Assembly (NCBI GenBank): GCA_965178125.1
Contig: OZ237740.1
Location: forward strand, 1,116,001-1,180,000
Length of the DNA: 64,000 nt
Reading direction: 5' to 3'
DNA from: Bilabrum cf. latius
Taxonomy: Eukaryota
Shown here: piece by piece, positions 6,601 to 45,807 of the stretch
Layout of the letters: every line of letters starts with the position of its first letter
Position numbering within the stretch: position 1 is the first letter of the stretch
The notes under the pieces: model-generated
Database searches by the model: none
Told to the model about the DNA's origin: nothing
The model's input: only the letters and a program-made list of their open reading frames with translations
Made by a program: the position numbers and the translations under genes

Positions 6601-8964
6601 ATGTCGGGGGCAGCGGCAAGTGGAAGCAGCGAATCTGATAGTAAAACTTCACATCTATCAGAATCTCTGTACTAGCGGCTTAAGGACGATGTTCGTGCCG
6701 TCGGTTTTCTGCTTGCAAAAGGGGACGGCAGGGTCCCGGAGGAAAGCGCCCACACACGCTGGCTGCTAACACCTGTGAAGGTGTGGCAGCTTCACCTATA
6801 CCTTGAAAAACATAAAGCAAGGTTCAGGCCGCGGAAGAAGAAGCAAGCATGGTCACAAGCCGCTGCAATGACCGAGGGCGTCGCATCTGGGAACATCGGG
6901 TACAAGACGGTTGCGGCCGCCTAGAAGGCGTGGCGGCGCGAGATGATGCTACAGGAGCAGCCCTAGAAGCGGAAACTGAAGTCGTGTCTACCTGAGCGCC
7001 TTGAATTAGCGCTGGCGGAGCTAGTTCGGAGCAGAGCGAGGGAAAACATGCCGATGACCGATGACCAGGTGTTCCACTTTGCTACCTGTCTCCGTCGAAC
7101 GTACTTGCCCAAGCGCCTGAGGAAGGGCAGGCGCCCCAACAAAGAGTGGGTAAATGACTACATGAAGCGTAGAGAGCTGCATTCGTTGACTCCGGAGGAC
7201 AAATCCATCGATAGGAGCGCAGCGGAGTCCGCCCACGTCCTGATCAACTGGTTCATCGCCTTCGCTTCCATCCTCGGTATGTCGATTGACAAGTCCACCG
7301 GGAAGGCCATTGGTGAGCTGAAGAAGTATCATCCTAGTATGATTGCCAATGCGGATGAGACTGTCGTTTTAGTCGAATCCCCGCCTGGCTAGAACAAGTT
7401 TCGTGACCTCAAGGTGGTCGTCGACTCGAGCGACGACAGGGCCACCCTTCGCCGTTCGCGGTTCGCCAAGACCAACGTGGCCTACATCCCTTTCGTCACT
7501 GTAGACGGATTGGTAGCTGATGTAGTTATCTTTAAGTATGACGGCAAGGGAACGCACGATGAAGGATTTCGCTTGGAGAACGACCGGTTGAAGTAGATGC
7601 TCAAGGACCTGCCGAAGGAGCCCACCGACGAGCAGGTGCAGAAGGTGCTTGACTGCCAGGCCGTGGCACAGTGGGTGGCTTACCCGAGCCCCACGCAGCT
7701 TCTATTCGTGACAGACGTCCCTGAGGAGTTCAAGGAGGTCGTAACGACCAAGCGCACGAGCCTTGTCGCCACTCCCACGGGGTACAGCAACGCCACCACC
7801 TTCGGCGGGGGGGTGCGCCTGCTGGCCGACCACTTCGATACCGTGCGCACAAAGGAGAAACTAGGCAAGGATGCAAGGGGTCTACTGATCGTAGACGGGC
7901 ATACAACCCACCATACGGCAGCACTGAAGGCGCTGTGTGCGTAGAGGAACATCGACCTGGTCTTCCTCCCCCCCAACACCACCCACTTCATGCAGCCCCT
8001 GGACGTCGCATGCATGGCGTCCTTCAAGCGCGTGTTCGCCGCCGACAAGCCGTACTTTGGCGAGTTTATTGCAAGCCGGTACCGTATTGAGGAGTAGAAG
8101 GCCAAGACCATATCGACGAAGGAGCACTTGAAAGCAGCCGGGCTGGCGAAGAACTACGGGGAGGAGTACATCCTGCCGATGCTGATGTCGGCGTCCAGGC
8201 AGGCGTTCACAGCCAAGAACGCAACCAGTGGGTTCAGGAAGTGCGGCTTGCTTCCACTTGACCCGGTCTCGGTGATGAAGGGGCTCAAGATGAAGTATGA
8301 AGTGATCAAGGCGGCGCTAGCTGGGTTGGTGGAGGAGGGGGGGGAGGGGGCTGCCAGTGGGGCGGGTGCTGACGACCTCGAGCCCGGGGGTGCCATCGCT
8401 CTGGTGTGCATCATGTTGGGGATTGACAAGCCCCCTCCTTTGTGGCGAGATGCGCCAGCGCATGCAACGTGCACCCTTGAGTAGGTTACGGATGCTTTGG
8501 TGAAGTATGGGGAGAGGCTGAATGCGGACCAGGCCCGTGACATGCTTGTGGATCGGCGGCCTGGCATGGCCGGTACTGTTGATATGATCGCCTTGCACAT
8601 CGCCAAGGTGAGAGAGAGTGGTGACAGGGCCGAGCTAGCTGAGAAGGGTACTAGGAAGCCTCGGACAAAGACGCAGCTCTCGCGCAGGCTGGCTGGTGTG
8701 GGAGGGACGGCAGAAGAGGCTCGGGCGGCGACGCTTGAGGCTGCTTCGAACAAGCGGAAGAGGGCGGAGGAGGGGGGAGCTGGGGGGAGGAAGAAGCGGC
8801 CCAAGTCGCCCAAGAAGAAACGTAGGGTGGAGAAAGGCAAGAAGGGTCAAGAACGTGCGGGTGGAGGAGGAGAGCGTGCGAAGGCGGAAGCCATGCCCTC
8901 GGCAGCTCCTGGGGGGCGGACGCGATCACGAAAGAATGTGAAGAAGCCAAGCAGATATAATTAA
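6601..8964 (+). CDS. DDE_1/pogo-type transposase, DD35D, 787 aa
   Basis: One frame from ATG 6601 to TAA 8962-8964, with 8 TAGs (6673, 6922, 6964, 7390, 7594, 7942, 8095, 8482). Triad motifs NADET, LLIVDGHTTH and FLPPNTTHFMQPLDV, plus SGFRKCGLLPLDP and a basic NLS-like tail. Confidence 0.92.
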
Positions 8965-9256
8965 GCCTATTTACTTTTCACTAGTGAAATATCAGCCTGT
9001 ACGGTGCCATAGAGACGAAGATATCACCTGTCCAAAAAGTGTGGACACATTGCCGGAGTTGGACAGATTTCTAGGAATCCGCTGTACCCCGAACTCCCGC
9101 CGTCCATAGCTTATGAGCTAATCGTCACCATCGAGATGCAAAAGTATCGCTGGAAAGCGCTTCCGGAGCTCTATCGGCTGAAAAAGGATTCGCCAGCTGC
9201 GGGCGGTTCTGTGAGAAGGTTCGGCGGCTTGTAGTCCCGGTTTGGGGCGGATTTTC

Positions 9257-9280
9257 TGTGGACATTTCCCCGATCAACGG
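9257..9280 (-). repeat. Right terminal inverted repeat
   Basis: Reverse complement reads ccgttgatcggggaaatgtccaca. Confidence 0.85.
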
Positions 9281-10565
9281 ATCCGAGATGCCGCGCTGCT
9301 TGGCCAGCGTTCCACCAGGACCAAGGTGCACGGCAAGATCGTGACCAAGCTTCTACCATTCCGATTGAGTACCGATTCCAAATTTATCGATGAATTTTGA
9401 GTAGAACTCTACGAGGAGCATAAGATTCTTGACCCCATGTTTTTCCCATGCCTCCACATAAAGATCTGCAGAGAAGGGCGAGCAGCAGAAGCAATCAGTT
9501 CAGTATCCCAAGCCATGCAGATGCTTAGTTTCAATTGATTATGCGATACCTTACCGTCCATGGCCGAAACATTGAACTAAGTCCAATCCTTTGGCTTCAA
9601 AAGATACGTCCCAGGGCGGATGTTGACCCTGCCTGCGGTTGACCCTACTTGACTCAAAATTTGAAGTTGCTCTGTGTGGAGCTCCGAAACTGCGCCCTCA
9701 TCAAAATTTCCAGAGCCTGTTGCAAGACCAAGGCGCTCCGCAACTGGCGGCCATCGGGGTGGTTGCGCTTGGCTGCTGCCCACGATTGCAGTCGCGCACA
9801 ACGCAATTGCACAGAGCCTGCTGGATAGCATGCGTGTTATTGTTTGCTATTGCAGATCCAAGCTTCCAGAACTAGTTTGGAATGCAACTCAGGAACGCCG
9901 CCCGATGGCCGATGGATCCTATTGCGACTCCGGGCGGCCATGGATCGCAAAACAACAACCACTGGGCCACTGGCATGCTGCCAACACTACCTGTGACGAC
10001 TGCTGTGAGTGTAAAGCTGTGGCAACCCTCCGGTCTGACATACTGCACCAGCTCTGCCGAGCGCTCGGCTCTTTTGTGACCAAACTGCCGCAGCTCTGCT
10101 GCTGCCGCTTCATCCACCACGCTAGACTAGCGCATCTCCGGTGCGTCTGCCCGAGCCATGCTACCTGCGACTACCACCGGTGCATGGGCCACGACCCGTG
10201 TGACGGCTTGGTCTGTGAGGTCTTCTTTCGGCTGGACCACGCTCCCAGCGATACTGCACTCTACCTGACCGCGCGCTGGCTCGCATGTTGTCGATTCCCG
10301 GCTTGGGAGTCGTCACACGGCGCGCTTGGACCTACCGGTACATACACGTGCTGTTACACCTATGATGTGTCATGTTACAGACCGATCACCACGGCAGAGC
10401 CAGCATAGCCCACACAGCCGTGCAGGACGGTCCTGGCGGGACCTCTAACCTATATGCACGTTACAATCACTTTCTGTATTCGAGCATATCGTCAACTACC
10501 GCCCTTCCGGGCAGGTTGGTGGGTCATTTCGTCCGTTTGCTGACCTTCCTACCTATTTGAGTCTA

Positions 10566-16500: not shown

Positions 16501-19487
16501 GTCTGCTGGTTTGCTGTCCGAACGGTGTGGGTGCTCCGCTGGGTGGCTTGGCCAAGGGTGGTAGGATGAAGGTGGTGGAAGGGGCGCTCGTTCGTGTGGC
16601 AGACAGCGAAGACGATGACGATGGTAGCAATGACGAGGCAGACGGGGATAGTTCCGCGCGAGCCGGTGAGGATGGGGACGGCAGCGACAGCGACGGGGAG
16701 TTTGGTGCACTTGAGACCGATGGAGAAGGGGCCACGGAGGGCCTGCTGGACGGTGGCGCGCTTCCAGACGCGACGCGTGCAACATCCCAGGCCCTCATAG
16801 AGAGGCGCATCCTGTTGTGGCGTGACCTCGTGTCTGTGCTGGCAGCCGCGGCAGCCAGCGCTAGCGTCGCATTGAGCAAGAGCGAGGATGTGGGCGCTGC
16901 CCTGCTTAAGTCCATTGGCAGCCTCATCGGGAGCCGAGCGGCGAGCGGAGCGGCTGCGACGGCAGGGGCTGGCGCTGCAGCGGGGGTCGAGAAAGACCGG
17001 TCAGCGAGCGGCTCTGCTCTGCTGGCCACAGCCGGCGGCATCGATGTGGGCGATACACCCATCAGCCAGGGCCGTGTGGGCGCTCTGCTCCGACTCGTTT
17101 GGGTGGTGATCGCGACGAGGCGAAGGGCGCGATGGGCAGAGGCGAATGAGGGCCGGCTGCTTGCCCCTGCAGCGTCGGGTGCATCATCCTCGAAGAAACG
17201 TAAGTCGGCCGAGGCCGTCGCAGCAGCTGACAACGTGCTTGTATGGGAAGAGCTACGGAGTCCTAGCGTTGGCACTGCATCTAGCCTGGATCGGGCTAGC
17301 ATGCGCTGCCTTGACGCTGCCTTGCGTGCGATCGGAAGACACACGGGAGCTATATTAGGAGGCTCTGATCCCGGTGAGGGAGTGCCAGACGAGCTCAAGG
17401 ACGTGTGGGAATCGACCCTTCGGCTGCTGCTCCGAGTTGCCACTGGTGGGGAGCAAGCGTTCGCCCCCGTCGCGACTGATCCTGAGTCAGACCAGGTGGC
17501 CCCGCGCAGGGACGGGTCCGTGCTTGCCCTGCCTGCCTCGGCCCTATCGTGCTCCGCGCTGCGAATGCTCAAGCAGATGCAAGCTGCAGATCGGATGCCG
17601 GATGACGCGAGCCGGGAGGGGACCGCCAACCCGCTCTGGTGCCCGACCTGGGCACTCAATTCCAACGGGTGGCAGCGGGCGATCGCACGGCTGGCCCGCC
17701 TGGCTTCCGGCTTCAGGGCCTCTTCTAAAGCAGCCCTGGACGCGCTGTCTAGTGCGCAGGATGCTGGTGCGCGGAGAGCAGCGGCCATCGCACGAGAGTC
17801 CAAGTCCTCAGTTGCCGGACTTGGTCTCAGGCTACATGACCTGGCAGTGGAGACCGGCACAGTCGCGGCTGCGTTGGATCCTGCCCAGGAGACGGGCTCA
17901 AGCAGACGGGAGCTGCTGGTGCTTCCACTTCGCGCGTGGGGGGTGGGGCTTGGGGGTGCCTACGGGACGAACGGGGGGGGGTAGCCTAGCGGTGGCCAGG
18001 CCGGGCCGGCGTCAGGCAGCAGCGGCGGCAGCGGCCAGCGAGGAATCGTTGCCGATGCGGGCAAAGCGAAGACGGCCATTCGCCACACCCGGGAAGGGGC
18101 AGCCTAGGCTGCCGAAGCGTTGCTGTCCATGGCCAAAGCAGGAACCACTGCTGAGGAAGCTCGCATGGTGCAGGTGGTGTCGGCCTCGGGGCATGGGAGC
18201 ATCGAGTCCGGCACGGCTGCACCGAGCCTGCTGCGGCCGCTGCAAGAGGCCACTGAGCTGCTGGTGGGCTGGTCCATTGCGGATCACCCCAGGTCTAGGG
18301 TTGCAGGGGTATCGCCTTCTGCGGGGGCACCCAGCCCAAGCGGTGTGACGCCGCCGACCCTCCCAGATGCAGCTGGATCGGTGCCTTCGCAAGGCAGCCG
18401 TGCCGGGTCCGCGCGGGAGAGCGCGTCGGGTTGCCGCCGGTCCCACGGGGCTGCACTCATTGCTGACAAGGACATGTGGGCAGTGACTGCTCGAGCAGAA
18501 TCCGATGCGAAAGCTAGGGCATCTGCGCCGACGTCGCCGGAAAAGCCCAGTCGCCGGCTCTCCGCGATTCGATCGCCCACTGCCTCGTCCTCATCTTCGT
18601 CCTCCACAGCGCTCGCGGCGCTCCGGCCAGCCCTTGAACCGACCGTGTACGTGACACCGAACTATGCACACCGCGTGTACAGGGGCATCGGGATTGCAGT
18701 GGCTGCCAGCGCGCTGGGCTGGCCGGTGCACCTCGAGGGCGCCGAGGAGGCGGCTGCTGGCTCGGGCGCTTCCATCCGGCATTCGGCTGAAATGGGGCTG
18801 CTGCGGCTCGCGGCAGAGGCAGTGGCGCGAGAGTCTAGCGTGCTAGCGGTTGGAGAAGGCCTTACGTCCCACATGGAGAGGCTGCTTGGGCTGGTTGCGA
18901 CTGGGGCGTCGGGGCTGACTGTCGACGCGCCCCAGGGGTCGGAGCTCGCAGTGAGCCCCACAGCCGCGGCTTCTGGCTCGCAAGCAGATGCGGCGCAGCA
19001 CTCTGAGGACCTGGCACTCTGGGAGAGGCGGAGGTAGTTCGGGAGGGCTTGTCTAGGACACTGGATCGGCATCGGAGTGCGGGCGCGGGGCCACGTGTCC
19101 AGAGCTGCGTGCACAGGGGTGCGAAGGAGCGTGGCCAAAGTGCTGCGGAAGGCGTCTGTGATCGAGGAGACGGTGCTTCGAACCATCGGTGCGGGGCAGG
19201 CACCTGGCAGCTGGGGAAGGGCAGACCCACCAAAGGGCCTGTGCGGCGTCGAATGCGTAGACGTGATTTGGCTTTGCTTGCAGGTAGCGCACATGGAGAG
19301 TGCTGCACGGGCCCAGGACGGCAAGGGGAGGGGTCGCTCGCGGGAGTTCTTCGAGTCTGAGGCCGGAGATGGCAGAGCTGATCTGTTTCGTGCGGCGGTG
19401 CGCTTGTCGCAGTCCAGTGCGGTGCCGCTTGTCAGACATGCTGCGGGGGAGCTGATGCTCGCGCTCACGGTGGGCAGGCATGAGTAA
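10566..19487 (+). CDS. MON2: MON2-like HEAT/ARM trafficking protein (~2973 aa, no intron needed)
   Basis: An 8.9-kb frame broken only by 13 TAGs and ending at TAA 19485-19487. N-terminus SDLRALATE..HPAVKEAAE..RPFLLAC..SAL[TAG]RLLS and C-terminal HHSLNSGVKQWAQT match MON2 motifs. Confidence 0.88.
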
Positions 19488-19596
19488 CTTACAAGCAGCA
19501 CAGCTGGCTTGAGCGACGTATAATCTTATTTTAGTTGCCTTCAGCAAAGCCTTTTTCACTAATTCCCCTCCTTCAGCACGCTACAGTGCACTGCAC

Positions 19597-22500
19597 TCAC
19601 ACGCAGCCCACCGCCACCGCGAAGCGGGGGGCCGTCTGGACAGAGCAAACCGAAACTCCAACCGGCGCCCCGCATCGAAACTGTACCAGGCCCTTCCAGA
19701 GGGTCGTTCCCAGCAGTAGCTTCCCGGCCATGTCGCCTTCCGTGGTACTGTGCTTCAATATCTCGACCCTGTCGGGCGAGCGGCAGCTCTTGCTCGCCGC
19801 TGGCGCAGCTCCATGCGAGCTGGCGTCTTCGGCCCTCGCACACTTGACTCCTGCGCGTACTGCCACAGTGACGACCCCAAGCTCAGGAACACTCATTACG
19901 GGCACCTCTGCCCCTTTGGCATGTGCTTGCCGCCGCTGATTGCCCCTTCTGGCGACTCTGGCAAGCAGCCTTCCCGTTTCATCGTGCAGCGCCGCGTGAG
20001 ACAGTCCTGCCATGCTGTCGAGAGGCACGGATCCATCCACTTCTGGAACTGTTTCCAGCGCGTCGGCTACCGCCTCGCAGCACGCTTTGCTGGTCTGCAT
20101 GCGAATGATGGCTTCCCCGCGTCCGGATGCCATGCCCGCGCACATGAGCTACGGCATGGGGTCTTGTCCGCCGGCTCTGCCTGCATCCAAGCGGCTGGAG
20201 CTCGCGCTCGAGCCGGCTGCACTGGATGAAGAGCTCTGCGGTACGTCGGACGGGCCGGTGTTTTCATCCTGCCTCCCAAGCAGGTCAATGACATCGATGT
20301 ATGTGCCGGCACCATAGATAGCAGCGCTGCCGATCCGACCAGAAGGCTTGAGAATGTGACCGCCGCTGCTGCTCGCGACTGCCATGACACCGTCAAGGTC
20401 GATGCAGGTGACTCCCACCGTATCAAGGCGACTATCGCGGTGCCGGTCAAGCTCTGCGTTAGCTTGTTTAAGAACCTCAGAGCGCCGCTTCTTGCGGCGC
20501 TGATCTGCGCAATCAGTCTAATGCGGACCGCGAGCATCGCACCGAGGACGCTTGCGTCCAATGGCATGCCCACTGGATGAATGACCCCGATCTTCAGATC
20601 CGTCAACGCAGCATCCGCGCACGGCTACCTGGCTGCATGGTTGTTCCGTCGGACCCAGAAACTCGAGCTCTCTGGCCCTGGGCCCCACCCTCTCTGCATC
20701 CACGATGGAGCGGTAGTGCCTCCACGCCCTCACGGCATCCGTCTCGGCGGAGGACTGCGCGCAGGCATCACGCGTTGTCCTAGCAGATGAGTGCGCGTAT
20801 GGATCTTGCCCGACACCCTCGCTGCCTGTATTGCGGCGCATGTGCACGTCGATGATAGCTACTCGCGGTGAGCTGTGAATCACTCCTTCGTCCTGAGCTT
20901 CGACATCTGGAGCACAAATGCTCAGCTTGCGGTTCGTGTCAGACCCCATGACCTGCTCCATTGATACCCTGCCGTGTCCGCCCAGCTTCCACTCTTCTGA
21001 ACTGCAATCGCTGCTGGCCGCCAGTGCCAGCGTGTCCATGCTGCGGTCTCTGGCTTGGCCAACAAACCCACGCTAGGCAGTCGCGCCGAATCTGCGCTGG
21101 ATGTGCCGCTCGTGCTACACCCTCAGTCGCTCGGCTTGCCTCCAGGGCTTCCATCGAGAGTCGGGCTTGGAATTGAGCCTGACCATGGCGTAGGGCAGCT
21201 ATTGTGGAACAGGCACTTGCTAGCTGCTGCTCGTGCTGCAACAGGCTCTCGACTTTGCCGGGCCCATGCGGGGCGGAGACTCTGCGTGCTTGGCTCTTGC
21301 TTTCACACCGAATCCGAGCGCTTCGCTGCGGGCAGTGAATGCAGATGGACTGACCACGGCCTCTTCAATGTCAGTGTTGTGCTCGTCAGCATCGCTGTCA
21401 GAGTCGTTGCCAAGATGCACTGCGGACGTCCGTGACAATGCAGTGCTCGGCCAGGCTGTCGTGCTCTCGGTGCGGGCACGGCCTCGCTGGGACTGCGACT
21501 GTTTCGGCACGGGGCTGGGCCCATCCGCTGCAGGGACCATGCCTTGGTTGAGCCGCCAGTGCCTCGAGGCTGCTCCCCTCGATGCCGCCGCCATGGACAC
21601 GATGCTGGGCATGCTCGACGCAGATCCATCGCCTTCAGAGGCTGTCCCGTCTTCAAGAGCCTATGAATGGAACCGCGGCACCTGGACTCGCAGACCCGCG
21701 ATGGAGCCGGCTGCGCTTGAATCGGTGCAGGACCCCGTGTTCCCCCTCGACCTCGACCTCGACCTCCTCTGCTCCCTGGACCTGGATCTAGATCGCGAAC
21801 GCGACAGAACGCGGGGCTGTCTCTCGCCTATGAACTCCTAGTAACGCCCATGTCCGAGGCCCATACGAGTCCCCGGATGGAACGAATCTGAGGAATGGTA
21901 TTCCTGCGCTATGCTGACGCGCTTGGCTGGGCCCCGCCCAAACCGAGAGGGGGCGCCACGATCATCCGATCTGGCCTATACTGCATCTCGCCAACGGCTC
22001 GCGACTAAAATTTCATTCTATTCACGGTTATCTTGCTCCATGTCTGGCTGGCGTACTACCTTGGTCGTAGAACTACGCGCCGTGCGAGGTTGCTGCGCGA
22101 CCTCACGTTGCGACCGGCCTCCACTGGGAGAGCAAAGTGGCTATCCTTGGGCTTCCGAGGAAAACGATTGCCCCCCATTGCTATCAAATAGTACCTGTGG
22201 TGGTTGGCTTGCAGGTGTTGCTTGCATGCTCGACGGTTTCACGCTACTAGCACTACGGGGGCTTCCAAGATGTCTATGAGGTTCTTTCTTGTCGGCCTCG
22301 GCACCCGTCCGCGGACTGCGATCCACCGAAGCTTCACGATTACCATTCATATCGTAGCGAGACCGGTTTTTTATACTTTTTAGTGCTTCTGGGTCGCTGG
22401 TTCTGCAGCTGAGCCCGGTGAGGCCAGCGCTCAGGTTACTAACCTTCCCACTCAGTTGCCTATCAGGTGCCGTTCCATCGGTGCTGAGGCGGCACGGCTC

Positions 22501-23243
22501 ATCGCAGAGCCACTGCGCGCCCCTACCACAAACAAAAACAGGAGGTTCAAGCCCGTGGCTGGATGGGCCCTCTTGGGCTCGCCTCAAAACACGCAATGCA
22601 CCAGCGACGGGGTGCTTGCCAACAACCCCGGCAACAGCTCCAAACAGGCCAGAACGAGCGCTATTCGAGTCTGATACGCAAGCGTCCAACTCAGAAATCC
22701 CATCCTACGTTCCAATTAACAATGTGGGCTCCTTTAATATGGAAAATAGAGTTTTTTAAGGAATGGGTTGCATACTTTTGATCGGCACGTCACAGCGGTC
22801 AAGCAGTAGTCGCGCTCCAAAATGGGACTCACATAGGTCAAATTGCTTCCCTGAGGGCCGCAGTTGCAACATGTTTGCTATTCTAAATACTCTACAGTGG
22901 CTGTTGCAACATCGGCAGCTGGATGTCCTCTCTATAAGGCAATGAATAGTTGAACGCGAAGAAATCGGACACAATTCGCGCAATTGAGGTGGAAAACGAG
23001 GCAGATGTCACTCAATGCTATAGACGATATAATTGCTAGAAGTGGGGCCATGCCACACGGTTGGATAAGTACGATAGCCAGCTGCACGTGCCGCAGTTGC
23101 ACCTGCTCGGCGAAGATGGGCGCGTTCAAACTCACACGAATTAGGCTCTTTCCAATGGCTAAGGCGCGCCTTAATGTCTATAGCACCACTATAGAGCGCT
23201 CCGGGCCGCCGTCGTACCCAGCACCTGCGTGGATTGCTATCAT
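19597..23243 (-). CDS. TASP1: Taspase-1-like type-2 asparaginase-family Ntn-hydrolase with a large insertion (~1100 aa)
   Basis: Motifs IAIHAGAG, GSNLT, ELDACVSD, FGAVAGV..HPV, the autocleavage site LD/TVG, SSSGG..KPSGRIG.AAIYGAG and SGRGEAIIR. Introns 22932-23135 and 22705-22832, about 13 TAGs, TGA 19597-19599. Confidence 0.8.
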
Positions 23244-23370
23244 TTTGTCGATGTGATTCTGATGGATAAATATCAGATTTGTTCAATTATGTGTTGCGAG
23301 TAGTTTTAAATATTTGAAAGAAGAAGACAAAAATTCCATCCTAAACGCACCTCTGGACCTTGTAGCAAGA

Positions 23371-25179
23371 ATGTTTCGGCTAAAGTGCCCTGTACAACAG
23401 TATGAGTGGGGAAAATTGGGATCGAGCAGTGCCGTTGCGAGTCTTGCGGTAAGTCTGCCCACATCATGATCACAGCCGCAATCGCCAAGCTTACATGCCG
23501 TGTAGGCAAATCGTACATGCATTTGTTTCAACGCAGTCGGACGGGCAAGGGATCAAGGTTGAAAATGACAGCCCATACGCTGAGTTCTGGTGAGCAGATC
23601 TTTGTTCTAGTGCCGGGCGCCAGCGCCATTGTGTTTTCGCGAAGCGGGAGGCAAGTTACATCGGAGCGATCCAGGACACCGCAGGTTCGGAACGCATCAA
23701 AAGGGACCGGCCCAAGTCGTTAGCGTAGATGGCAAAGAGAAGGAATTATAGGGTGTTTTGGAATCATCCTCCGCCATTGCAGGACTTGTAGTTGAACCCG
23801 GGAAAACCGCGCTTCCGTATCTGTTCAAGGTGCTGAGCGTCGCAAAGGCACTGTCGATTTAGGCTCACCCGGATAAGAAGCTTGCGGAAGAGTTACACGC
23901 TTCTCGCCCTGACGTGTACAAGGACGACAACCACAAGCCGGAGATGGCAATCGCAGTCACACCCTTCGAAGCCATGTGCGGCTTCCGGAGCGTCGCAGAG
24001 ATCGCAGCGTTCCTGAAAGAGGTGCCGGAGCTGGCAACTTTGATAGGAGAAGAAGGCTGCAAGGCTGTGCACGAAGCGGCGTCGTCATCGGAGACCGGCC
24101 CGGGTGCCTGCAGAGCTGCGCTCAAGGCAGCGTTCGGCGCTCTCGTGGCCCGGTCGGACGAGGAAGTGGGGAAGCAGGTCTCAGCCCTGGTCGGGCGGCT
24201 CACTGCTGTGGGCTTCAAGCCGTCCTCACCAGACGATTTGCTCGCAGACGGTGCGGCCCCGGATGCCTCGTGCATGGCACTGCGGCTCAACGAGCAGTTC
24301 CCCTTGGACGTCGGCGTCTTTGCACCCTTCCTCCTCAACCTCCTGAGGTTGCAACCGGGCCAGGGCGTGTTCCTTGCAGCGAACGAGCCGCACGCATACC
24401 TCGCGGGAGACTGCGTGGAGTGCATGGCATGCTCGGACAACGTGGTGCGGGCTGGTCTCACGCCCAAGCTCAAGGACAAGGACACGCTCGTGAGCATGCT
24501 CACCTATGCGGCGGGGAAGCCCCCCGTCTTTTCGGGGGGGCAGGCCGGACCCAACGGCGAGCCCTTGGGGGCCGGTCTGAGGCGGTACGCGCCTCCAGTG
24601 CCCGAGTTCGAGATTTTGCGGGCGGACGTGCGCAGCCCGGCGGCAGTGGCGGCTGTGGAGGGAGCTAAGGTTGGGGCTGCGGGCGGGGCTGGTGCTGGTG
24701 CAGGGGAAGGGGCTGGTGCTGGTGCAGGGGAAGGGGCTGGTGCTGGTGCAGGGGAAGGGGCTGGTGCTGGTGCAGGGGAAGGGGCAGCGACAGGGGGTGC
24801 TGGGGGTGCTGGTGCTGGGTCAGGTGGCTCCTCTATATTTGCTTGCGGTTCGCTGAAGCTGCCGAAGGTTCCCTCTGCGGCAATCGTGCTGGTGATCGAT
24901 GGGAGCGGAATGGCTCGAGCCAGCGCCACTGAGGGCGGTGGGGGTGAAGGGGCCAAGGCAGCTGGGGCAGCCGGAGCGCAAATGCTAGGGAAGTGGGGGC
25001 CCGTGTCTCGAGGTTAGGTGTGGCTGCAATCGGCTGGAACCGAACTGGAGATCAAGTGCGATGAGGTGGAAACAGCTGCTGCGAGTGCAGCCAGTGCGGA
25101 GGGGGGCCCCGTGGCGCACGGTGCAGGGGCCCTCGTGGTGTACCGGGTGCACGTGAATGCTGACAAGTGGGGCAAGTGA
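23371..25179 (+). CDS. MPI: Mannose-6-phosphate isomerase, type I
   Basis: Motifs QQYEWGK, PYAEFWFGTH, LFKVLSVAKALSI[TAG]AHPDK, YKDDNHKPEM, NEPHAY and SDNVVRAGLTPK. Introns 23449-23536 and 23590-23684, 3 TAGs, TGA 25177-25179. Confidence 0.96.
24685..24780 (+). repeat. 24-bp coding tandem repeat x4 (GAGAGAGE) in PMI
   Basis: ggggctggtgctggtgcaggggaa repeated four times exactly. Confidence 0.95.
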
Positions 25180-32400: not shown

Positions 32401-35400
32401 GCCGCCGGGGACCAGTGCGGACACCCGCTCGTGCTCCCTGATCCTGGACTCCTCCAGCTCTTTGTCCTCCCGGTCCCACTGCCGGTGCGAGAGCTGTTCC
32501 TCCAAGCCCTCCACCTCGAGCGCGAGGGTGCCGTCCGCAGGGTGGTCCAGGCTCATGGCCATGGCGGGCTTGCCACCGAACACACTAGGAGAAGCCTCGC
32601 TGTCGCTGGCCCCCGCTGGCGTGGCCAAAGTGGGCATCTCCCACCCGGTGGTGGCGTGGGCAAACGGAATGCGATCTTCCTGCAGCACTTCTCGGGCCAC
32701 GGCTGCCTGCCGCTCCTCCTCCGACACGTTTCCGTCCGAGGCGGGGGCCTTGGCGATTGCGTCGATGATGTCGGGCGCCCTCTCCGCGCGGCCCCCGTCC
32801 TCGCGCACCCCGAATCGGTCTTCCCTGCTTGCCAGCCTGGTGGCTTCGTCTTCCATCCCCTCGACGATTCTGGAGCGCATCTCCATGGTCTTGCGGCGCG
32901 CGTCCACGCTGTACTCAGCGCCGGGCAGCAGGTGCGGCCTGGGCCTTTCAGCGTCAGATCCGCTGCTGCCGTCCTCAGAATCTCCCACCAGAGGGCCGAT
33001 GGTGGAAGCAGAGAGCGACTCGAGCACGTGCGCCGGGGCGATGCGCGACACCGCGCGAGAGCCGATGGCACTGGCAGCGTCTGAGCCAACATCGCCCAAG
33101 CTTGGCCCTTCCTCCTGCTGCGAGGACCCCAGCGAGCTCTCGCCCGCCCGAGCCAGACGGAGCGCCGCCCTCGCCGCCCTCCGCCGGTCAGCCGCCGAGA
33201 CGCTCTCGGCCGTGGCTGGGTTGGCCCTGCCCTCGGCCACCCTCCTCACGGCTTCTTCGTACCTGGCTGTGCTCTGCTCGCGGACGAGCCGACTCGCCAG
33301 CTGCATCATCAGGCGCTCCTCCTCGGCGTCCACGTCGGGGAAAAAGCCGCGAGGCAGGCCCAGGATCTTCTCGGCGGCGCCCCTGGCCTTTTCCGCAGAG
33401 GCCTCTCCGTCCGAGGTGGTGGCTGTTTCGTACCCCGTGACGCCCGCTCGCTTGCGCCTCTTGTTGCGCTGCCTCCTCAGGACCTCCTCGGTGCTGATGG
33501 GCTGCTCCCCTTCCATGACCCTGTGCACCATCTCCATGTGGGCCTCCAGCCGCTGCCGCTTGGCCCTCCGCCGAAGCAGGGCGGCCACGTCGGGGTCGTC
33601 CGACGAGTCGTACTCCGTCTCCGTGTTGGGCCGCCCGTTCACCTGCTCCCACTCGTAGTCACCGATCGCGCCCTCGCTGAACCCCGCCTCCTCCAGCCGC
33701 TTGCGTGCCTCCTTGTGCCTGGGGTCCAGCAGCACCTCGTGGTACGACTGCAGCCCGTCCGAGTCCGAGGCCCAGCGGTCTCGGCCCGGCTCGCGGATTG
33801 AAAGGTCCGCGGGGCCATCCCTGGGCTTGCCGTTGATGAGCTCGTCCGTGTCGGTCGAGTCCGACTGGTCCGCCTTGACCCTGCCGTTGCGGTCCCTCTT
33901 CATGTCCGGCTCCAGGCCCAGCTTCTGCCGCTGCGAGGCGGACAGCTGCATGTCCACCGCCTGCTCCTTGTCGTAGTAGTAGTGCACGAGCCGCTGCGCA
34001 AGCTCGGCCGCGCCCTGCCTCGTGCCCGGCATGCGAAACGACGTGATCTGTCCCCGCTCCCGCTCCAGGTCCGAGGCCGCCTCCGTCTCGCCGCCCACGA
34101 TGTTGCCCTCAGAGTCCACCTCCACCAGGCCGGACCGCCCATTCTCGCCGTGCTGCAGGCTCAGCAACCTCTCCCCTGCGCCCCTATCCCTCACAAGATC
34201 CCTCATCTCGTTCCACTTCTCCTTGGCGTCCTTGTGCTCCAGCTGCGGCCCCTTGCCCACCTTGTCCACCCCGCGGGCGTACGTGGTCAGCAGCGTATTG
34301 AAGGTCTCCCTGTTCGGCCTTAAGCCCTCCACCGCCATCTTGCGTAGGTAGCCCCTGGCCCTGTTCACGTCCCCGCGGTGGGTGCACGCCAGCAGCACAG
34401 CTCGGAAGGCACGCTGGTCGTGCTTGAAGCCGGCCTCCTCCATCTGGTTGAACAGCTCGTGCGCTCGCATGTAGTGCCTGTAGGAGCGGGCCGCCGCGTA
34501 TATCATCGCGCCGTACGTGCTGTGCGTGGGCTGCACGCCGCTGAACTTCATGTCCTCGAACAGCTTCAGAGCCAGCTCAACGCGGTCCTGCCTGCCGAGC
34601 CCGTATATCATGGTCGTGTACACGGCTGCGTCTGGACTGACATCGACCGAGTCCATCTGACGGAAGAGAGTCAGGGCATCGTCCACACGCCGGTGCTGGA
34701 TGAGTCCGTGCAGCGCGGTGTTGTACATGCCAGGAGTGGGCATGACCCCCTCCTGCCTAGCCTGGGACAGCAGCTTGAGGGCAGCGTCAGGCTGCCCCGC
34801 TCGGTTCGCCGCGTGCATCAGTGTGCCGTAGGTGACGGCGTCCGGCTCGATGCTCGCTTCCCGCATCGAATCCAGCACGGACAGGGCAGCCTCAAGGTTG
34901 CGCTGCCCGGCGCACGCGTTGACGAGAGAGTTGTACATGGCTGCGGTTGGGTTCCTGCCGTGCTCCAGGAAGCGGCGAACCAGGTCAATGGCGTCTTCGA
35001 ATCGGCCGTGCACGCCCAATGCGTGGATGGCATTAAGATACAGAGCGTCGGTTCGGCTATCGTAGGGCCGGGTGCTCGCTGCTTCGGCCAGCGCCCGGTC
35101 GGGGTCTACATTGAGCCAGCCTACGATGCACGGGGGACCGCGACAATAATGCAGATTTCAGTGAAACGGACAAATGGACGCGATACCAAGAGGCGAGACA
35201 AAGGTTGTAGCACAAACTCACGTTCGCGGGAGCGTGGGTCGGCATGCTTTGGTTTTACGAGCAGGTCGATTGCCATGTTGGTCCTCCTGTCCACCTCCTC
35301 TTGCTCTGCTTTACTGCGTTCTGGAAGCTATAGAGCGGGTCGGGGAGCCGGATTAGCCTCTCTATATTCTTGTAGTTCTTTTCTGCGCCTTCTCTTTGCC

Positions 35401-35702: not shown

Positions 35703-35830
35703 CGCCAGTCGATTCAATAATTGTTGCGTGCCAGGCACACGTCGGTGCTCCAACAGGGATGATGTGCTCCGAATCGGATGCCTCACACCGCGATTTCTCT
35801 CGCCATCTTCTCCAGACACAGCAAGCAGCA

Positions 35831-36128: not shown

Positions 36129-36350
36129 CCCCACGAAGCAATGAAAGCCGCGTTTCTAGCGGAAATGAGCCAAATGCTAATACCTAGCAGTCATTGTTCG
36201 CGGCATTTGCTTCCTATTCGAGACGGAACGATCTGGTTGGCAATTTCGAATCCGTTGGAAGCAGCAATTCCAATCACGCCAGCAGGTTGCGGAAGGAAAA
36301 TTTGGGTATAGTATTAAATGAAATGCAAGCGTAATTTTACATATTTAGGA

Positions 36351-37280
36351 TCAAGCGCTCTTTCTTGTGCCCATGTACCGCCACATGTGCAAGACCTGCC
36401 ACACGGCGCACAAGACAAGCACAACAATCTGAGCTATCGACCACCACTTCACCCTGTCATTCGTTTTCTCCGTCTCGTCCCGGAACTCGATTTCCCTAGA
36501 CCTCTGATACTGCTGTTCTCGCTGGATGTCTACGGCTTTGTCGTTCAACTTTCTCATCTCGACTTCGAGGCTGGACAGGTGCTCCGTCTTCGCAACCTCG
36601 CTGTAGTCGATGGCCATCTCTCCGATATTGATGGTGAGATCAAACCTCTGCGCGCGCAAGGAATCGTAAAGCAAGGGATGCTGGGGACTTGCACTCGGTT
36701 GAGGCGCGCCGAGAGTCTGAACGCGACCCGAATGCGGATACTTACGAATGTTCGAGGAGACGACATCCATCGTGAGCTTCTCGTAGAAATGCAGATGGTG
36801 TGTTCACCCTGTTTCTGCGACGTAAACGCCACTTTTCCCTGCGAGACAGCGCACTACGAGCAGGTGACCACCAACCAATGCAACTAGCGACGCCCAAGCA
36901 CGGAGCATTCCGCAGCTCGACCCCTCCTCACCTTTGAATCAGCTTCTCTTGAAAGAACTTCGACCCCACTAGGATCCGAGACGGTCACCAAAACTGTCTG
37001 TGGGGGCCGAGGTGACGCATTGCTAGTGCTTGAAGCATGCAACTCAGTACAGGAGACACGAGGGATCAGCGGTGCGGCCACACGGGAAGCTACTCACGAC
37101 CTTTGAATCTGGGGATGCATTCGAAGCGTCAGGATTCTCGTACATGGCTACAACGAGCGTATCCATCGGTACCTCCTCGAGAAAACAGCGTCGCTTGCCC
37201 TCCTCGAGCTTAAAATACATGCCGTCCGCAAATGTCAGAGCACACGCAGCTAAAACAGCAATGCATAACCGGACCTACAT
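36351..37280 (-). CDS. p24/TMED (emp24/gp25L) cargo receptor, 212 aa
   Basis: Signal peptide starting ATG-TAG, then MYFKLEEGKRRCFLEEVP, GEHTIC and EQQYQRSREIEFRDETEKTNDRVKWWS plus a TM segment. Introns 36998-37097, 36839-36931 and 36648-36745. TGA stop. Confidence 0.93.
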
Positions 37281-37569: not shown

Positions 37570-38959
37570 TCAGGACGACATCCCCGATGCCGCCCCGCCT
37601 GTGGCTGCTCCCGATCCAGCGCCCGATCCACCCGCACTTGCCCCGACACTGCGCGGCGCCTCCACCCCGAAGCCGGGCACCACCACGACGCCATCAGTCC
37701 CAGCCAGCTCGCCGGGCCTGCACGAGTCCTGCAACCCGCCCGCGTCTGCCCTCCCGAAGAGCTGTTCCATGCACTTCATGATGGACTCCTTGTTGGAGCA
37801 GTCGGTCGCGAACTGCACCCTGCAACCCTCGCTCTTGGTCGACTCGCACCTACACTCCTTGATCTTGCCGTCCACGCCCCGCACGCTTCGCTTGGCGTCA
37901 CACAGGAACCCCAGGGCCCCCTTGCGTCGGACCTGCGGAAACTCCGGGTCCGGATACTCCTCGCCGTCCCGCTTTTTGCATATCCCGCAGAGCACTTGCA
38001 TGTCCAGCAGGTCCCTCCACCCCGTCCTGCGCTTGTCAAACCCACGGCTGCCATCTGCCATGCACGCCTCGGCCTTCTTGAGCCACATCGACTCGGAGTC
38101 GGGGTCTGCAGCTGCCTTTTTCAGGCACTCGGCGCACAGGGGCCGCGGCTGGAACTCGGCCCCGGGCGTGTTGCAGATGGTGCAGTTGCCTTGGACGCAC
38201 CTGCCGATGGGGCCGGCCGGAGGGGGCCACGCCGCGCGCATCACCAGATGCATGCAGGACGACGCGTTGAACCCGACCTCACGCATCGTGGTCTTGTCTC
38301 CTAGCGCGAGTCCTCGGAAGATGACCTGGATGAGGTGCAGCGCAATGCCGCGCTGCTCGCTCAGCGCCTTCTTGAGCTCGCCTACTGTGTGGTCCTTGTG
38401 CACGCTTACGGTGATTGTATGCCCGATATTCGTCTTGATGCCCCCGCGAATGCGCCCGGGAGCCAGAGTAGCGTCCAATGGTGGTGTACTTGATCCCGGT
38501 GTTGCGTCTATGGGGCTCGCCGCAGTCGAGCCTGCCGGATCACCTGAGGCAGCAGTGGACTGGAACGCCTTGCCTTCGTCTCCTACCCCATCCCAAGCTG
38601 GGATTATTCCGTCAGGCCACAGGGGGGATCTATCACGGGCAATCACTACCATTGTCGATATGTTGCCCAGCCGTAGGCTTCGTATGGTCACACTATCATC
38701 CAATTTGTTTTGGTGGTGGACGAACATCATGTCTACATCTCGGCGGAGAGCCCTCTGCGCATTGCAATGGATTATTAACTCAATGATAATCTTGAAGTAT
38801 GAGCACCCAAGAATGGATTTGAGACGCTGGTATCGATCTTGTAGCAACGTACCGTAATTGCCTTTCTCAGTCCCCCAATCGTCCCATCCTTTAAATAAGT
38901 GAAGGTACCCGAGACCGCGCCACCTATCGGATCTTTCAAGGCGATGCTCTAAGTCCCCA
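37570..38959 (-). CDS. Tandem ubiquitin-like domains plus a Cys-rich parkin RING0-like zinc domain (start uncertain)
   Basis: Ubl1 (TIGGLRKAIT|..KLDDSVTIRSL) spans intron 38755-38852. Ubl2 reads HTVGELKKALSEQRGI..VIFRG.LGD. Then CTIC..RPLCAEC..WRDLL..CGIC..FLC. TGA 37570-37572. The ATG may be split by an intron at 38960-39058. Confidence 0.65.
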
Positions 38960-39700
38960 CTGCGGCACACATGTTGCAGGTGTATTTGTGCTGGCGTTCT
39001 GGCGAAAATACGGAACTGGCCGCTACAGGCTGCGCGGCGTTGCACATTGACCACCCACTGCCCTGATGAAGTGGCAAAGCCAAGTACGGTTAGGGCGTTG
39101 ACGCGCCAAGGCAACCAGCCAATTCAAAAATACCACTCTTCCATATGATTTAGGAACATTACAGCAATGCTCATTCCGACCCAAGTCTCTTGGCAGGGCG
39201 ATTCCGGACCGGCGGCTAGAAGAAGTGGTACTTGCGGAGGCAACTTGTACAGCTCGCCGACGAGCTAGCTCGTGCAACTGCATCCAGAGTAATAGTGCGG
39301 GCTGGATCAAGAGCCGTGATTTATGGTGCAAAGAGCATCGCCACAGCCGAGCTGCAGCTTGAGGTGGCAGTGAGGTGCACTGCAAGCAACTGCAAAGATG
39401 ATAGTCTACACTGTGGTACAATTGGCCGTCATCTAGCCGGTGCGAGCGTTGCCTTCTCATGCATGCTCTATTTACTACATCAGCCGCCACCGCCGCCACA
39501 ACCAACATTAAACAAAGAAGATCGCTTCGCAAGGATCGTCCGGAGCAACTAAACTTGCATCGCCTCACCGCCACCACCCAAACAATGGCTAAGACAATTT
39601 CAAGCTCTTGAACCTTTTTCTTTTGTTGATTCAGTTTAAGACAGGCCGAAAAAACCACGGTAAATCCTCGAGCAACCGCTGCCGAGGTGTCACAAGTCAT

Positions 39701-42616
39701 ATGGCTCAAATGGAAGACGACTCCAGAGACAGCAGCGACTTGAAATGCGACGCGATCGCATTTTGTCTTCAGTGCTTATGTTTAGACGCAACCGAACCCG
39801 AGAGAGCGAGTCTCGTGAACTGTGCATCTCCCGAATGGATTCGTGCGCTTGAGTTTAAAACTGGCTGGCCAAGCTATCTGGATTCGGTGGGGAGTTTCTT
39901 AGCACATGCATCAAGACAGAAGGTTCACGACGAGTAGAGCTGCCTTGGGTTGCACGCGCTTGCTTTAGTCTCCATGCTGCGACTGCAAGCTGTCATTGCT
40001 GATGCGTGCACCCGACTAGACTATGCGGTGCATGCAACGTTTGGATTAGACCAGAACAAATCAGGAACGGATTCAGAAACAGCTCACAGCCTAGACATTA
40101 GTGTAGAGCCCGGCTGGTTGTCGATCGTCGTAGCTGAGTCTAGAACCGGAGACCTCATTCGATCGGCAGCAAGGCAGCTGCTCGCAAGGTCACATGCTAG
40201 TGGCCACCACACCCGATCCAGCACCACTTTCAGGCCAGATATCGCATAGGATGCTGACATGCAGGCAAGCCCTAATTAGCCCACGGGAAGCAGCAGCCTC
40301 GCGGACCGCCGCGCGGCTGGACGGAGCGCCCTCGCTCTTTGGCTCGCGAGCTGCGAGGCGCTCGAGCAGGCAGCCATCGGCTCTAACGGCCACGGAAGTG
40401 CCGCACCGACACAAGGCAGCAAACGTACCCCCAGGCATGCCATGCTCGCCGCCGCCCAGGCCCCCGCATTGGCGAGCAGGGGAGAGTGGGATGCATCCAG
40501 GCCTGCACCTGTCGGCTCCATACGGCGGAGGGTCGGCGCACCGCTGCCACTGCCACTGCCACTGGCGGTGGGCTCTTCCGCGGCAGCTTCGGCAGGTCCT
40601 AGCGGTGCCACCGCATCGTCCGCTTCTTCATCGTCATCATCTTCCTCTGCTGGTGCTGGTGCTGGTGCTGGTGCTGGTGCTGGTGCTGGTGCTGGTGCTG
40701 GTGCTGGTGCTGGTGCTGGTGCTGGTGCTGGTGCTGGTGCTGGTGCTGGTGCTGGTGCTGGTGCTGGTGCTGGTGCTGGTGCTGGTGCTGGTGCCGGTGC
40801 TGGTGCTCATAGGGCAGGTTCCTTTGAGTACACCCAGGCCCTGCCTGCCACAGGTGCGAGCCACGGGTCCCGCGGCACTCCGGACAGAGCACATGCTGCT
40901 GTCGGAGGCACCGCTGGCAAGAAGAGAAGCAGCTCTCCCTCGATGGCTGAGCCTGCTGCAGTCGGGGCTAGCGATTGCGTGGAGGCGGGTTCCGATGCGC
41001 GGGCTCGAGAAGCTGATGATGGGGGTAGGAACGTCGATATAAGTGGGGGTGTCGATGGGGAGGAGGTTGGTGCTTCTGCTGGCGCACTGGACGGTGGGGT
41101 GGTGGAGCTAGCTACTGGTGGGGATATCATCCACCTCGGGCTGGTCGCACCCCTGGACCGGCCTTCGGGATTATCGCCACACGGCACTGCCTCAGCCCCG
41201 GTAGACGAGTAGGGGCCAAGAGCCAACGCGGGCAGACCCATGAGGAGCGGGAGGGGGGGTGGTAGGCCGCGGACTAGCCCCAGGGGGGGTGGTAGGCCGC
41301 GGACTAGCCCCAGGGGGGGTGGTAGGCCGCAGACTAGCCCCAGGGGGGGTGGTAGGCCGCAGACTAGCCCCAGGCTGTCCAAGCGGAGACGGACCGGAAA
41401 TGGAGAGGCCGTGGAGGCACAGAAGGAAAGGGGTGCTCCCGTGAGTTCGGATGCAGGGCACGGTGGTGCACCATCAGCCGGTGCCGTGGTCACGCTTGGG
41501 ATGGTGGACCACCTGGTGACCCACGCGGCTGCCGCAAGGGCGCTGGCGAGAGGGGCTAGCTCCGGTCCAGGGCAGGAAGGGGCCTCCCAGGAGGCGTGGA
41601 GCCAGGTTGCGATGGAGGCGATGTCAATGGGCGCTGGATCGGCGCCTGCAGCTCTTGGAGGGTCAAGCCCAGCCAGCGGACTCGACTCTTCACCCAAGGG
41701 CAAATAGGCAGCCAGCAGCCAGCGCACCGGAGTGAGCGGCTCGCAGCCCGCCCTCGCGCACCTGTCTCCGTCCCTGTCCCCCTCTGGCAGGGGGAGGGAT
41801 AACAGCGACGACGGCAACGATGGTACTGAAGGAGCAAGTCCCAATGGCGCTGGTGGCATCTAGGCTGGTCGCAAGCGTCCCAGGGAACAGCGTTAGCTGG
41901 CCAGCGCTCCGGCCGCTGCTCCTCTCGATGCCTCGTAGCCAGGCGATGATTTTGACTCCGAGTTCTGTGCGGGTCGGCTGGGGCCGGTCCTGAGCGTGGA
42001 GCATGCCGCACTGGTGGCCAAGCACGCTCTGGCGCTGCATGAGAGTGACGAGTGCGGGTCGGACGGAGCAGGCCGCGGGCAGGCAAGCAGCCAGGACGGC
42101 GCCGAAGCCGCTTGGGGGGGGCGTGCACGGGGGAGAAGAAGGCGCAATGGAAGCAGCAGTGGTGGCAGCGAGGACAGCGGCGGTGAGGAGCAGCGCGGAG
42201 AGGCCCAGCGCGGTGTTGGGGCCTCCTCGGAGGGACACGAAGTGGGGGGGCGGTTCCGCTGGCTGGATGAGAACGGCGCCGCGCTTTGCCTCGTGGACGC
42301 CTGGGTGTTCGCGATCGAGGGCACGCTGCTGTCGAGGCATGTGGCTGGGCGACGGGTGGCTGCTGGTCGTTGCAACGGGGGGGCACATGGTGTCGGATTG
42401 TCAGGGCCTGCTGGTGGCAAGGCGGGGGGTCTGTCTCCCGGCGAGCTGGATCGGCTGCGGTCCATGGCGGGGCTGATGCAGGCGCAGGTGCCCTTGCTGT
42501 GGGGGCTCGCGGCGGGGCGACTGGGGGTGGAGGTGGAGAGGAGGATGGCGCTTGGGGGTGGAGATGGGGACGGAATTGGAGATGGGGACAGGGGTGATGG
42601 CAGTGTCGAGAAGTGA
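39701..42616 (+). CDS. Hypothetical low-complexity protein (~971 aa)
   Basis: One frame from ATG 39701 to TGA 42614-42616, broken only by 8 TAGs. No family recognised. Confidence 0.65.
40649..40807 (+). repeat. (GCTGGT)n coding microsatellite, ~26 units (Ala-Gly)
   Basis: 24 perfect units, one gccggt variant, then gctggtgct. Confidence 0.97.
41252..41371 (+). repeat. 30-bp coding tandem repeat x4, RGGGRP(R/Q)TSP
   Basis: agggggggtggtaggccgc(g/a)gactagcccc four times, two copies of each variant. Confidence 0.95.
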
Positions 42617-42760
42617 CGTGCTTGAGGTGCCGTGCGCGGAGGAGGGGGGGGGGGGGGGGGTGGCTCCTTGGTTGAGGACCGAGGCACCTGTTCCTCGGGA
42701 GGTAGCACGCAGGGGTAATGGTGCTTGCTTGAATCCATGAATCTGGCCCGTCTGCATTCG

Positions 42761-43435
42761 TCACATCTCGTCCTCCCCGATCTCGTCCTCGGCATCGGCC
42801 GCTGCAGGGGCCGCCGCTACGGGGGCTGCGGCAGGGGCGGCAGCTGCTGGGTCCGCGGCAGAGCCATCCCCAGATCCACCTGCAGCCGCGCCGGCGGCCA
42901 CAGGTGCGGCCGCGGCGGCGGCCGGCGATGGGGCCGCAGCTGCAGGTGCGCCGGCCTCCTCTGGCTTGATGCCCGCTGCTACTTCAGCCAAGATTGCCTT
43001 TGCCTTCGTCAAAGCTTCTGTTCCAGCAACTCCGGCCTCCTCTTCGACATCCTCCACGGTTTCTCGCAGCTATCTTGTGAATTGTTTCAGCCTGCGCTGC
43101 GTGTCAGGTACCATCATCTCGCTTTCGTCGAGCACCTCGCCGTACTTCTTGATGTCGTACTCGTCCGCCCCTTCCATTCTCATCTTCTCGATCTTTGCTC
43201 GATTCTCATCGACTTCCTTGAAATAGCCTCTCAATTCTTTGACAAGCCTGCGAGGAAAACCTGGAGCACGCCGTGCACGGTACGGTTACACTGTGGAGTA
43301 TGCTGCCGGCGACGCCGCCCGGTGGCGGCAGCGATCTCACCGCTCTACAGTTCTTGTCTGGATCACAAGTTTCTTCGTAGGGTCGGCAGCAGCCTTTGTC
43401 TTGCCAAACTTTCTTTTTGGGGCCGCAGATGCCAT
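42761..43435 (-). CDS. TBCA: Tubulin-specific chaperone A
   Basis: KLVIQTRTVER|LVKE..KIEKMR.EGADEYDIKK..EVLDESEMMVPDTQRRL. Intron 43248-43340, TAG 43070, TGA 42761-42763. Confidence 0.92.
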
Positions 43436-43575
43436 GTTTATGCCGGTATGTGGGCGTCTTGAGCCGGGTTCGAAACGGCAAGGCAGCAAAACCCGGAACC
43501 CACAAACCAGAGTTGAGGCGGGATCGAGCGCGCAGTAGGTTCAATAGAATCACTCATTGCACATCATGCATTATA

Positions 43576-45807
<2,232 letters not shown>

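Follow-up and report, generated by a model that had tools for sequence, protein, structure and literature searches.

Probable reassignment of UAG to glutamine, with UAA and UGA retained as stops, in the nuclear genes of a GC-rich protist

The codons UAA and UAG (together UAR) usually change meaning together. A 64-kb stretch of DNA from Bilabrum cf. latius (contig OZ237740.1, positions 1,116,001 to 1,180,000 of the forward strand; the whole stretch is called the window below, and positions are counted within it) carries intron-poor eukaryotic nuclear genes at a G+C content of 63%, and the initial annotation proposed that the two codons are decoupled there, with UAG as a sense codon and UAA as a stop. 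The best explanation of the data, and one that we consider likely, is a nuclear code like that of NCBI table 15, with UAG translated as glutamine and termination at UAA and UGA.

Reassignment of UAG alone, with UAA kept as a stop, has been described in several lineages. The available text of PMC11687900 names an uncultured rhizarian (leucine), Iotanema spirale (glutamine), Scotinosphaera (serine) and Protocruzia tuzeti (glutamine), as well as five phyllopharyngean ciliates in which UAG specifies leucine in three and glutamine in two. Iotanema spirale, a member of the Fornicata, resembles the window in that UAG alone has moved to glutamine, UAA and UGA are stops and evidence of in-frame UAA is lacking. 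A tRNA-Gln(CUA) was predicted for this organism together with an altered eRF1, which has a T32G change in its GTS motif, and this is the same mechanism as the one proposed below for the window (PMC5304391, available text). Iotanema differs from the window in belonging to an unrelated lineage and in having UAA as its predominant stop, whereas in the window, at 63% G+C, 17 of 20 genes end in TGA and three in TAA.

The ciliates Hartmannula sinica, Trochilia petrani and Protocruzia tuzeti also carry independent changes of UAG to glutamine with UAA still a stop, and their codes were inferred from in-frame UAG at conserved glutamines, the same approach as that taken here (PMC11687900). UAG is present in 78-91% of the ciliate genes and UAA is the stop in 87-98%, whereas in the window TAG is carried by 16 of 21 open reading frames (ORFs) and UGA is the main stop (ciliate figures from the available text of PMC11687900). 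Unlike these ciliates, the window groups with bicosoecid stramenopiles in a tree of the helicase DHX15. NCBI table 15 ('Blepharisma Macronuclear') is identical to the code favored here, with TAG as glutamine and TAA and TGA as stops, but the table serves as a label only, its attribution to Blepharisma going back to 'some sources' (PMC5304391, available text). Codes of the NCBI table 6 type, in which both UAR codons specify glutamine, occur in many ciliates, Hexamita, ulvophytes and oxymonads (PMC11687900, available text); they share the meaning of UAG with the window and differ in the meaning of UAA, which closes genes in the window and is never found in frame. In the codes of Condylostoma and Blastocrithidia, one codon is both frequent in frame and a regular terminator, a pattern that the window does not display.

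UAG as a glutamine codon

The evidence comes from 21 non-overlapping coding ORFs, chosen by a codon-usage score, whose coding parts comprise 16,204 codons; the 3' end lies within the window for 20 of them, and the 21st runs off the window end. The codon table behind the score was trained on nine of these same genes, and the stretches between a TAA and the next TGA that are discussed below were outside the training set. The 21 ORFs contain 61 TAG codons in frame and neither TAA nor TGA, and the 16 that carry TAG include housekeeping genes. Further TAGs lie in N-terminal parts removed by automatic trimming, so that the MON2-like coding sequence (CDS), for example, has 13 when read from its ATG at 10566. 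In the other two frames of the coding DNA, TAG occurs 83 and 75 times. When all three standard stops are enforced, the window holds 26 ORFs of at least 400 codons (14,691 codons in all). Opening TAG raises this to 40 ORFs (29,809 codons), which approximately doubles the long-ORF content, and opening TAA instead yields 27 ORFs (15,138 codons), almost no gain.

The sequence downstream of the TAGs behaves as coding sequence. Pfam domains extend across in-frame TAGs, and in 14 of 15 genes the tail between the last TAG and the stop scores positive for coding; in the fifteenth, this tail has just six codons (-0.18). The 40 codons past each stop score negative at all 20 ends. The TAGs are distributed along the genes (17, 9, 7, 12 and 12 in successive fifths).

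Is it possible that TAG has kept its standard meaning, the in-frame TAGs being explained by introns, RNA editing, pseudogene lesions, assembly errors or low-level read-through? Changes of code are generally rare, and some genes in the window do have introns close to their 5' ends. To examine this, four public sequencing runs were compared with the window between 5500 and 25400. One run, X1, has an even depth and lacks splice joints, as DNA would, and three (X6, X7 and X8) are presumed to be RNA; the comparison concerns the stretches that have cover. Contigs of X6, X7 and X8 show joints with GT..AG ends (CT..AC for the minus strand), and two X6 contigs were taken as RNA-derived because they contain GT..AG joints that are absent from X1. 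The introns marked by joints in this region are as follows.

23449..23536, + strand: PMI intron 1, GT..AG; joint 23447>23536 in X6 and X7 contigs, absent from X1
23590-23684, + strand: PMI intron 2, GT..AG; joint 23588>23684 in X6 and X7 contigs, absent from X1
22705..22832, - strand: intron of the taspase-like gene; CT..AC joint 22703>22832 in an X6 contig
22932-23135, - strand: second intron of the taspase-like gene; CT..AC joint 22931>23136 in an X6 contig

Of the 26 in-frame TAGs between 5500 and 25400, 23 sit on listed pieces of X6 or X8 contigs, and those at 6539, 17982 and 25015 have no listed contig cover. The listed X6 and X8 pieces contain a single differing letter in all (X8, at 7074), which is not at a TAG, and the DNA run X1 has no differing letter at any TAG in this region. 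The TAGs are thus retained in spliced mRNA, the RNA origin of the contigs being judged from the splice joints. That TAG has not been reassigned is extremely improbable given these unchanged letters in RNA-derived and DNA contigs alike, the spread of 61 TAGs over 16 of the 21 ORFs, the absence of in-frame TGA or TAA lesions from the same genes, and the three TAGs that fall on conserved glutamines.

These three TAGs bear on which amino acid is inserted. Thirteen TAG positions could be aligned to homologues, and three of them lie in conserved columns, all three of which are glutamine.

23860..23862, + strand: TAG in PMI at the conserved glutamine of LSI-Q-AHP; glutamine in 1pmi, 5nw7 and 3h1m, among which are Candida and Salmonella enzymes
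51096..51098, - strand: TAG in the N-terminal part of the UNC-93-like transporter, AFNTA-Q-AL; 16 homologues aligned, of which 15 reach this column, all 15 with glutamine
7390..7392, + strand: TAG at transposase codon 244, ESPPG-Q-NKFRD; glutamine in three of four relatives and histidine in the fourth

The TAG in PMI is covered by a spliced, RNA-derived contig that agrees with the window at every letter, and the glutamine that it would specify is one that we take to be a zinc ligand. Searches of the PDB for more informative columns gave no match for the GAF/thioredoxin protein or the MON2 N-terminus; the GH32 alignments miss the TAGs of that protein, and the taspase alignment spans only residues 437-494, which are free of TAG. 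The TAG of the RIO kinase aligns with glycine or histidine in human RIOK3 and RIOK1, in a variable column. Taken together, the alignments indicate that TAG is read as glutamine.

TAG makes up 0.38% of codons, compared with 3.2% for CAG. In four genes whose G+C content at third codon positions (GC3) is at least 0.80 (PPR, DHX15, COQ6-like and CSN3), there are four TAGs in 4,741 codons, and in three genes with a GC3 of 0.62-0.71 (ORF 40238-42616 and the genes for the transposase and the taspase-like protein) there are 22 in 2,308 codons. This drop in density as codon bias rises suggests that TAG is a disfavored or a young codon. Its overall sparseness, and its near absence where codon bias is strongest, would fit with less efficient decoding or with a recent reassignment.

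UAA and UGA as stops

UAA is the codon on which the window departs from codes of the table 6 type. In the coding DNA, TAA occurs 23 and 37 times in the two other frames and never in frame. The initial annotation had remarked that TAA is not found internally although CAA is in use, and this is borne out over all 16,204 codons. CAA is the rarer glutamine codon (80, against 520 CAG, or 13.3% of the two combined), and if the UAR codons were synonymous and used at the same ratio, about 9.4 in-frame TAAs would be expected; the probability of finding none among 61 UAR codons is 1.6e-4. Ratios taken from the GAR, AAR and TTR codon pairs give probabilities from 3e-7 to 1.5e-3.

Three genes end in TAA at exactly the positions given in the initial annotation, and the DNA past each TAA is indeed richer in A+T: compared over 150 nucleotides (nt) on either side, the G+C content falls from 0.57 to 0.47, from 0.65 to 0.55 and from 0.69 to 0.52. 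A like drop is seen at the TGA ends. The three genes and the features around them are listed below.

6545..6579: left terminal inverted repeat of a transposon, 35 nt, 77% complementary to 9035-9069
6601..8964, + strand: CDS of a DDE_1 (pogo-like) transposase (Pfam E=2.9e-12), 787 codons, 8 in-frame TAGs, TAA end at 8962-8964
9035..9069: right terminal inverted repeat of the transposon, starting 70 nt past the transposase TAA
10566..19487, + strand: MON2-like CDS (DCB domain, Pfam E=5.9e-18), 13 in-frame TAGs, TAA end at 19485-19487; RNA-like contigs are colinear with it
19488..19847, + strand: from the MON2-like TAA to the next in-frame TGA, 119 codons with two more in-frame TAAs
43576..45807, - strand: CDS of the DHX15/Prp43 helicase (Pfam helicase, HA2 and OB), one TAG (45757-45759), TAA end at 43576-43578

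In the MON2-like gene and the transposase the coding signal ceases at the TAA. The 119-codon extension of the MON2-like gene has a coding score of -0.38 and a GC3 of 0.56; among 696 coding windows of this length, none scores as low (minimum -0.126). Read-through would also carry the frame, antisense, into the CDS of the convergent neighbor, the stop of which is at 19597-19599. A spliced, RNA-derived X6 contig runs unbroken over 17989-22703 and crosses the MON2-like TAA with no joint, which makes a terminal intron that removes the TAA unlikely. For the transposase, the CDS of which is covered by RNA-like contigs, the next in-frame TGA is at 9391-9393, 143 codons past the TAA, and the extension of 142 codons scores -0.23, again below all 696 coding windows. 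The ATG of the transposase, at 6601, is 22 nt past the left inverted repeat, and the right repeat begins 70 nt past the TAA, so a frame that ignored the TAA would exit the transposon. The tail of DHX15 past the last conserved motif has 48 residues, compared with 24-56 in the 77 of 120 homologues in which the motif was found, and fits an end at the TAA or at the TGA that follows. We conclude that TAA works as a stop, there being three TAA ends in all.

These results bear on the possibility that both UAR codons specify glutamine, as in NCBI table 6, and that TAA is missing in frame simply as a consequence of GC richness, the real ends of the three genes lying at the next TGA. Codons ending in A are indeed disfavored in the window, as the CAA and CAG counts illustrate, the DHX15 TAA has a TGA only four codons on, and the sample is small. 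Even so, about 9.4 in-frame TAAs would be expected at the CAA/CAG ratio and none is seen, both long extensions score below every coding window, the MON2-like extension contains two further TAAs and overlaps the convergent gene, and the transposase extension leaves its transposon. Shared reassignment of UAA and UAG is for these reasons very unlikely.

TGA remains a stop. It closes 17 of the 20 genes with an end in the window, TAA closes three and none needs to end at TAG, as the initial annotation had also found; its count of nineteen TGA ends was higher than ours, a gap due to gene calling. Within the coding DNA, TGA is absent in frame, by the definition of the ORFs, and occurs 258 and 252 times in the other two frames. 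The protein profile of emp24 is matched from position 90 to 180 of 182, with the TGA directly after. In three genes an in-frame TAA lies downstream of the TGA, at +1, +2 and +5 codons; the numbers are small, and these TAAs are possibly back-up stops.

53621-53626, - strand: TAA after TGA
36345-36353, - strand: TAA after TGA
5094-5111, - strand: TAA after TGA

Several points weigh against reading UAG as glutamine with UAA and UGA as the stops. The evidence base is one 64-kb window of one genome, a small sample, and TAA ends number just three. At one of them, that of DHX15, the TAA is followed by a TGA four codons on (43564-43566), which makes this end uninformative; the MON2-like C-terminus (residues 2560-2976) has no homologue among 8000 candidates. 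Because TAA served as a stop in delimiting the ORFs, its status as 'never internal' is partly by construction; the only control for this is provided by the coding-potential tests, with a codon table from nine of the same genes. As for the amino acid, 10 of the 13 alignable TAGs are in variable columns, where the residues include E, S, D, K, L, A, G, H and V, two of these positions are serine in two related transposases, and glutamine is not enriched beside TAG (0.038 versus a background of 0.037). Finally, two genes have a TAG 7 and 17 codons ahead of the TGA (56026-56028 and 60551-60553).

The last of these points raises the possibility that UAG is context dependent, specifying glutamine inside genes and terminating at some ends, as in Condylostoma or Blastocrithidia, with UAA and UGA as further stops. 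The two tails in question are short and cannot be scored reliably, and TAG is sparse and avoided where codon bias is strongest, as would be seen for a codon that competes with a release factor. At the observed density of TAG, however, about 1.5 of 20 genes would by chance have one within the last 20 codons, and two were seen. TAG is required at none of the 20 ends, all 14 tails of at least 16 codons after a TAG score positive, and TAGs are spread along the genes. A regular dual meaning for UAG is therefore unlikely, although TAG may have an occasional role as a stop. With respect to UAG as a glutamine codon and UAA as a stop, every test that is possible in the window supports the separation put forward in the initial annotation, as well as its caveat about the small number of TAA ends, of which that of DHX15 cannot discriminate.

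Genes, introns and the transposon in the window

Pfam families recognized in the window include a RIO kinase, the DDE_1 transposase, the MON2-like protein with its DCB domain, the taspase-like Ntn hydrolase, PMI, a PPR protein of 2,884 codons, a ubiquitin-domain protein, DHX15/Prp43, a RING protein, a COQ6-like flavoprotein, an UNC-93-like transporter, CSN3, a thioredoxin/GAF protein, emp24 and TBCA. At least one family was matched by 14 of 23 candidate ORF translations and, in a second set, by four of six, one of them weakly. The PPR protein is unusually large for its kind; its ORF (26455-35106, - strand) is a single reading frame with PPR repeats at both ends, a long acidic middle of low complexity and three TAGs. 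Several unrelated proteins contain long Ala-Gly dipeptide runs that derive from GC-rich, microsatellite-like repeats.

approx. 41150-41400: Ala-Gly run in ORF 40238-42616
approx. 24850-24960: Ala-Gly run in PMI
approx. 53700-53800: Ala-Gly run in ORF 53624-55114

The GT..AG introns of the window are short (88-204 nt) and are clustered at the 5' ends of genes that are otherwise free of introns; four have RNA-like contig support. Removal of both introns from PMI gives an open frame starting MFRLKCPVQQYEWGK, the N-terminal residues of which presumably resemble other PMI N-termini, and the stretch FGTHQKGPAQ, which is aligned to solved PMI chains, is then in frame with the upstream ATG. ORF 56005-58086 (- strand) abuts an upstream TAA, has no ATG and has a GTAAGG donor at this place. 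Its sequence suggests a 5' intron, probably at about 58010-58085 (- strand), and an upstream exon in another frame with two more TAGs. One spliced RNA-derived contig, 17989-23244, takes in both the 3' end of the MON2-like gene (+ strand) and the whole of the convergent taspase-like gene (- strand). The stops of these two genes are 110 nt apart, and their 3' untranslated regions probably overlap.

The pogo-like (DDE_1) transposon at 6545-9069 looks complete, with a length of 2.5 kb and imperfect terminal inverted repeats of 35 nt. Its left end is on a piece of a DNA-run contig (6529-6637) at a depth of 55, compared with about 15, and this higher depth suggests that the transposon has several copies. 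A first scan of metagenomes with the transposase found nothing, and a second found 18 loci, all distant (23-56% identity over short segments), with no close relative among them. Related transposases in public protein collections are short fragments with up to 83% identity. Judged from the proteins alone, these fragments look like products of standard-code gene calling that broke the genes.

Host lineage, decoding and significance

The placement of the host comes from DHX15, the identity of which to its homologues is 67-75%, with a best match of 75% and none near-identical in the protein collection searched. The DHX15 tree has 33 rows, comprising the window and 32 of the 120 listed matches that were picked for their names or high scores (88 were omitted). 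The window sequence falls in a nine-row clade with Cafeteria roenbergensis and Bicosoecida sp. (support 98/95), where it is sister (94/95) to Cafeteria and one further sequence. From this single gene, the host is probably a stramenopile related to the bicosoecids. The named relative nearest to the window by DHX15, Cafeteria roenbergensis, is a heterotrophic stramenopile that is also GC-rich (~70%; 10.1101/751586). In the available text of that paper, a non-standard code is mentioned for the mitochondrion only and no nuclear reassignment is described. No report that UAG has been reassigned in the nuclear code of a stramenopile or bicosoecid was found in the full-text literature, a search in which most subscription journals were not covered; the source data themselves appear recent (runs of 2025), and a report may already exist.

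How might UAG be decoded without UAA? Translation of UAG but not UAA requires the anticodon CUA, because a UUA anticodon would wobble onto both codons. From general knowledge of termination and wobble, it is expected that a tRNA-Gln with anticodon CUA would decode UAG and would not pair with UAA, and such a tRNA could come from tRNA-Gln(CUG) by one base change. The N-terminal domain of eRF1 would in addition have lost or weakened its recognition of UAG while still reading UAA and UGA. The initial annotation proposed this mechanism, and the same argument from tRNA and eRF1 has been made for Iotanema and the rhizarian exLh (PMC5304391) and for ciliates (PMC11687900), as far as the available texts of these papers show. 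The 64-kb window contains neither a tRNA gene nor an eRF1 gene.

A split between the two UAR codons is not in itself a new kind of code, and the initial annotation overstated its novelty, since UAG-only cases with UAA as a stop have already been described. What differs here is the lineage, from which such a code has apparently not been reported, along with UGA rather than UAA as the main stop; this dominance of TGA is as expected of a GC-rich genome. As a tentative proposal, it is possible that the window represents the first non-standard nuclear code in stramenopiles, having arisen by an independent change of UAG to glutamine in a GC-rich, UGA-dominant relative of the bicosoecids in which UAG is still young or partly ambiguous. 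A GC-rich genome of this type would have used UAG often as a stop until it was reassigned, and AT-driven 'codon capture' would thus be an unlikely route. If this proposal is true, the low frequency of UAG and its scarcity in the most codon-biased genes would mark a reassignment caught in progress.

On a practical level, annotation with the standard code would break most genes in this genome, given that TAG occurs in most of the ORFs examined. More generally, each independent split of UAA from UAG helps to show how eRF1 loses one codon and keeps the other, and by which route, and a case with UGA as the main stop at 63% G+C would provide a contrast for models of codon capture and of ambiguous intermediates.

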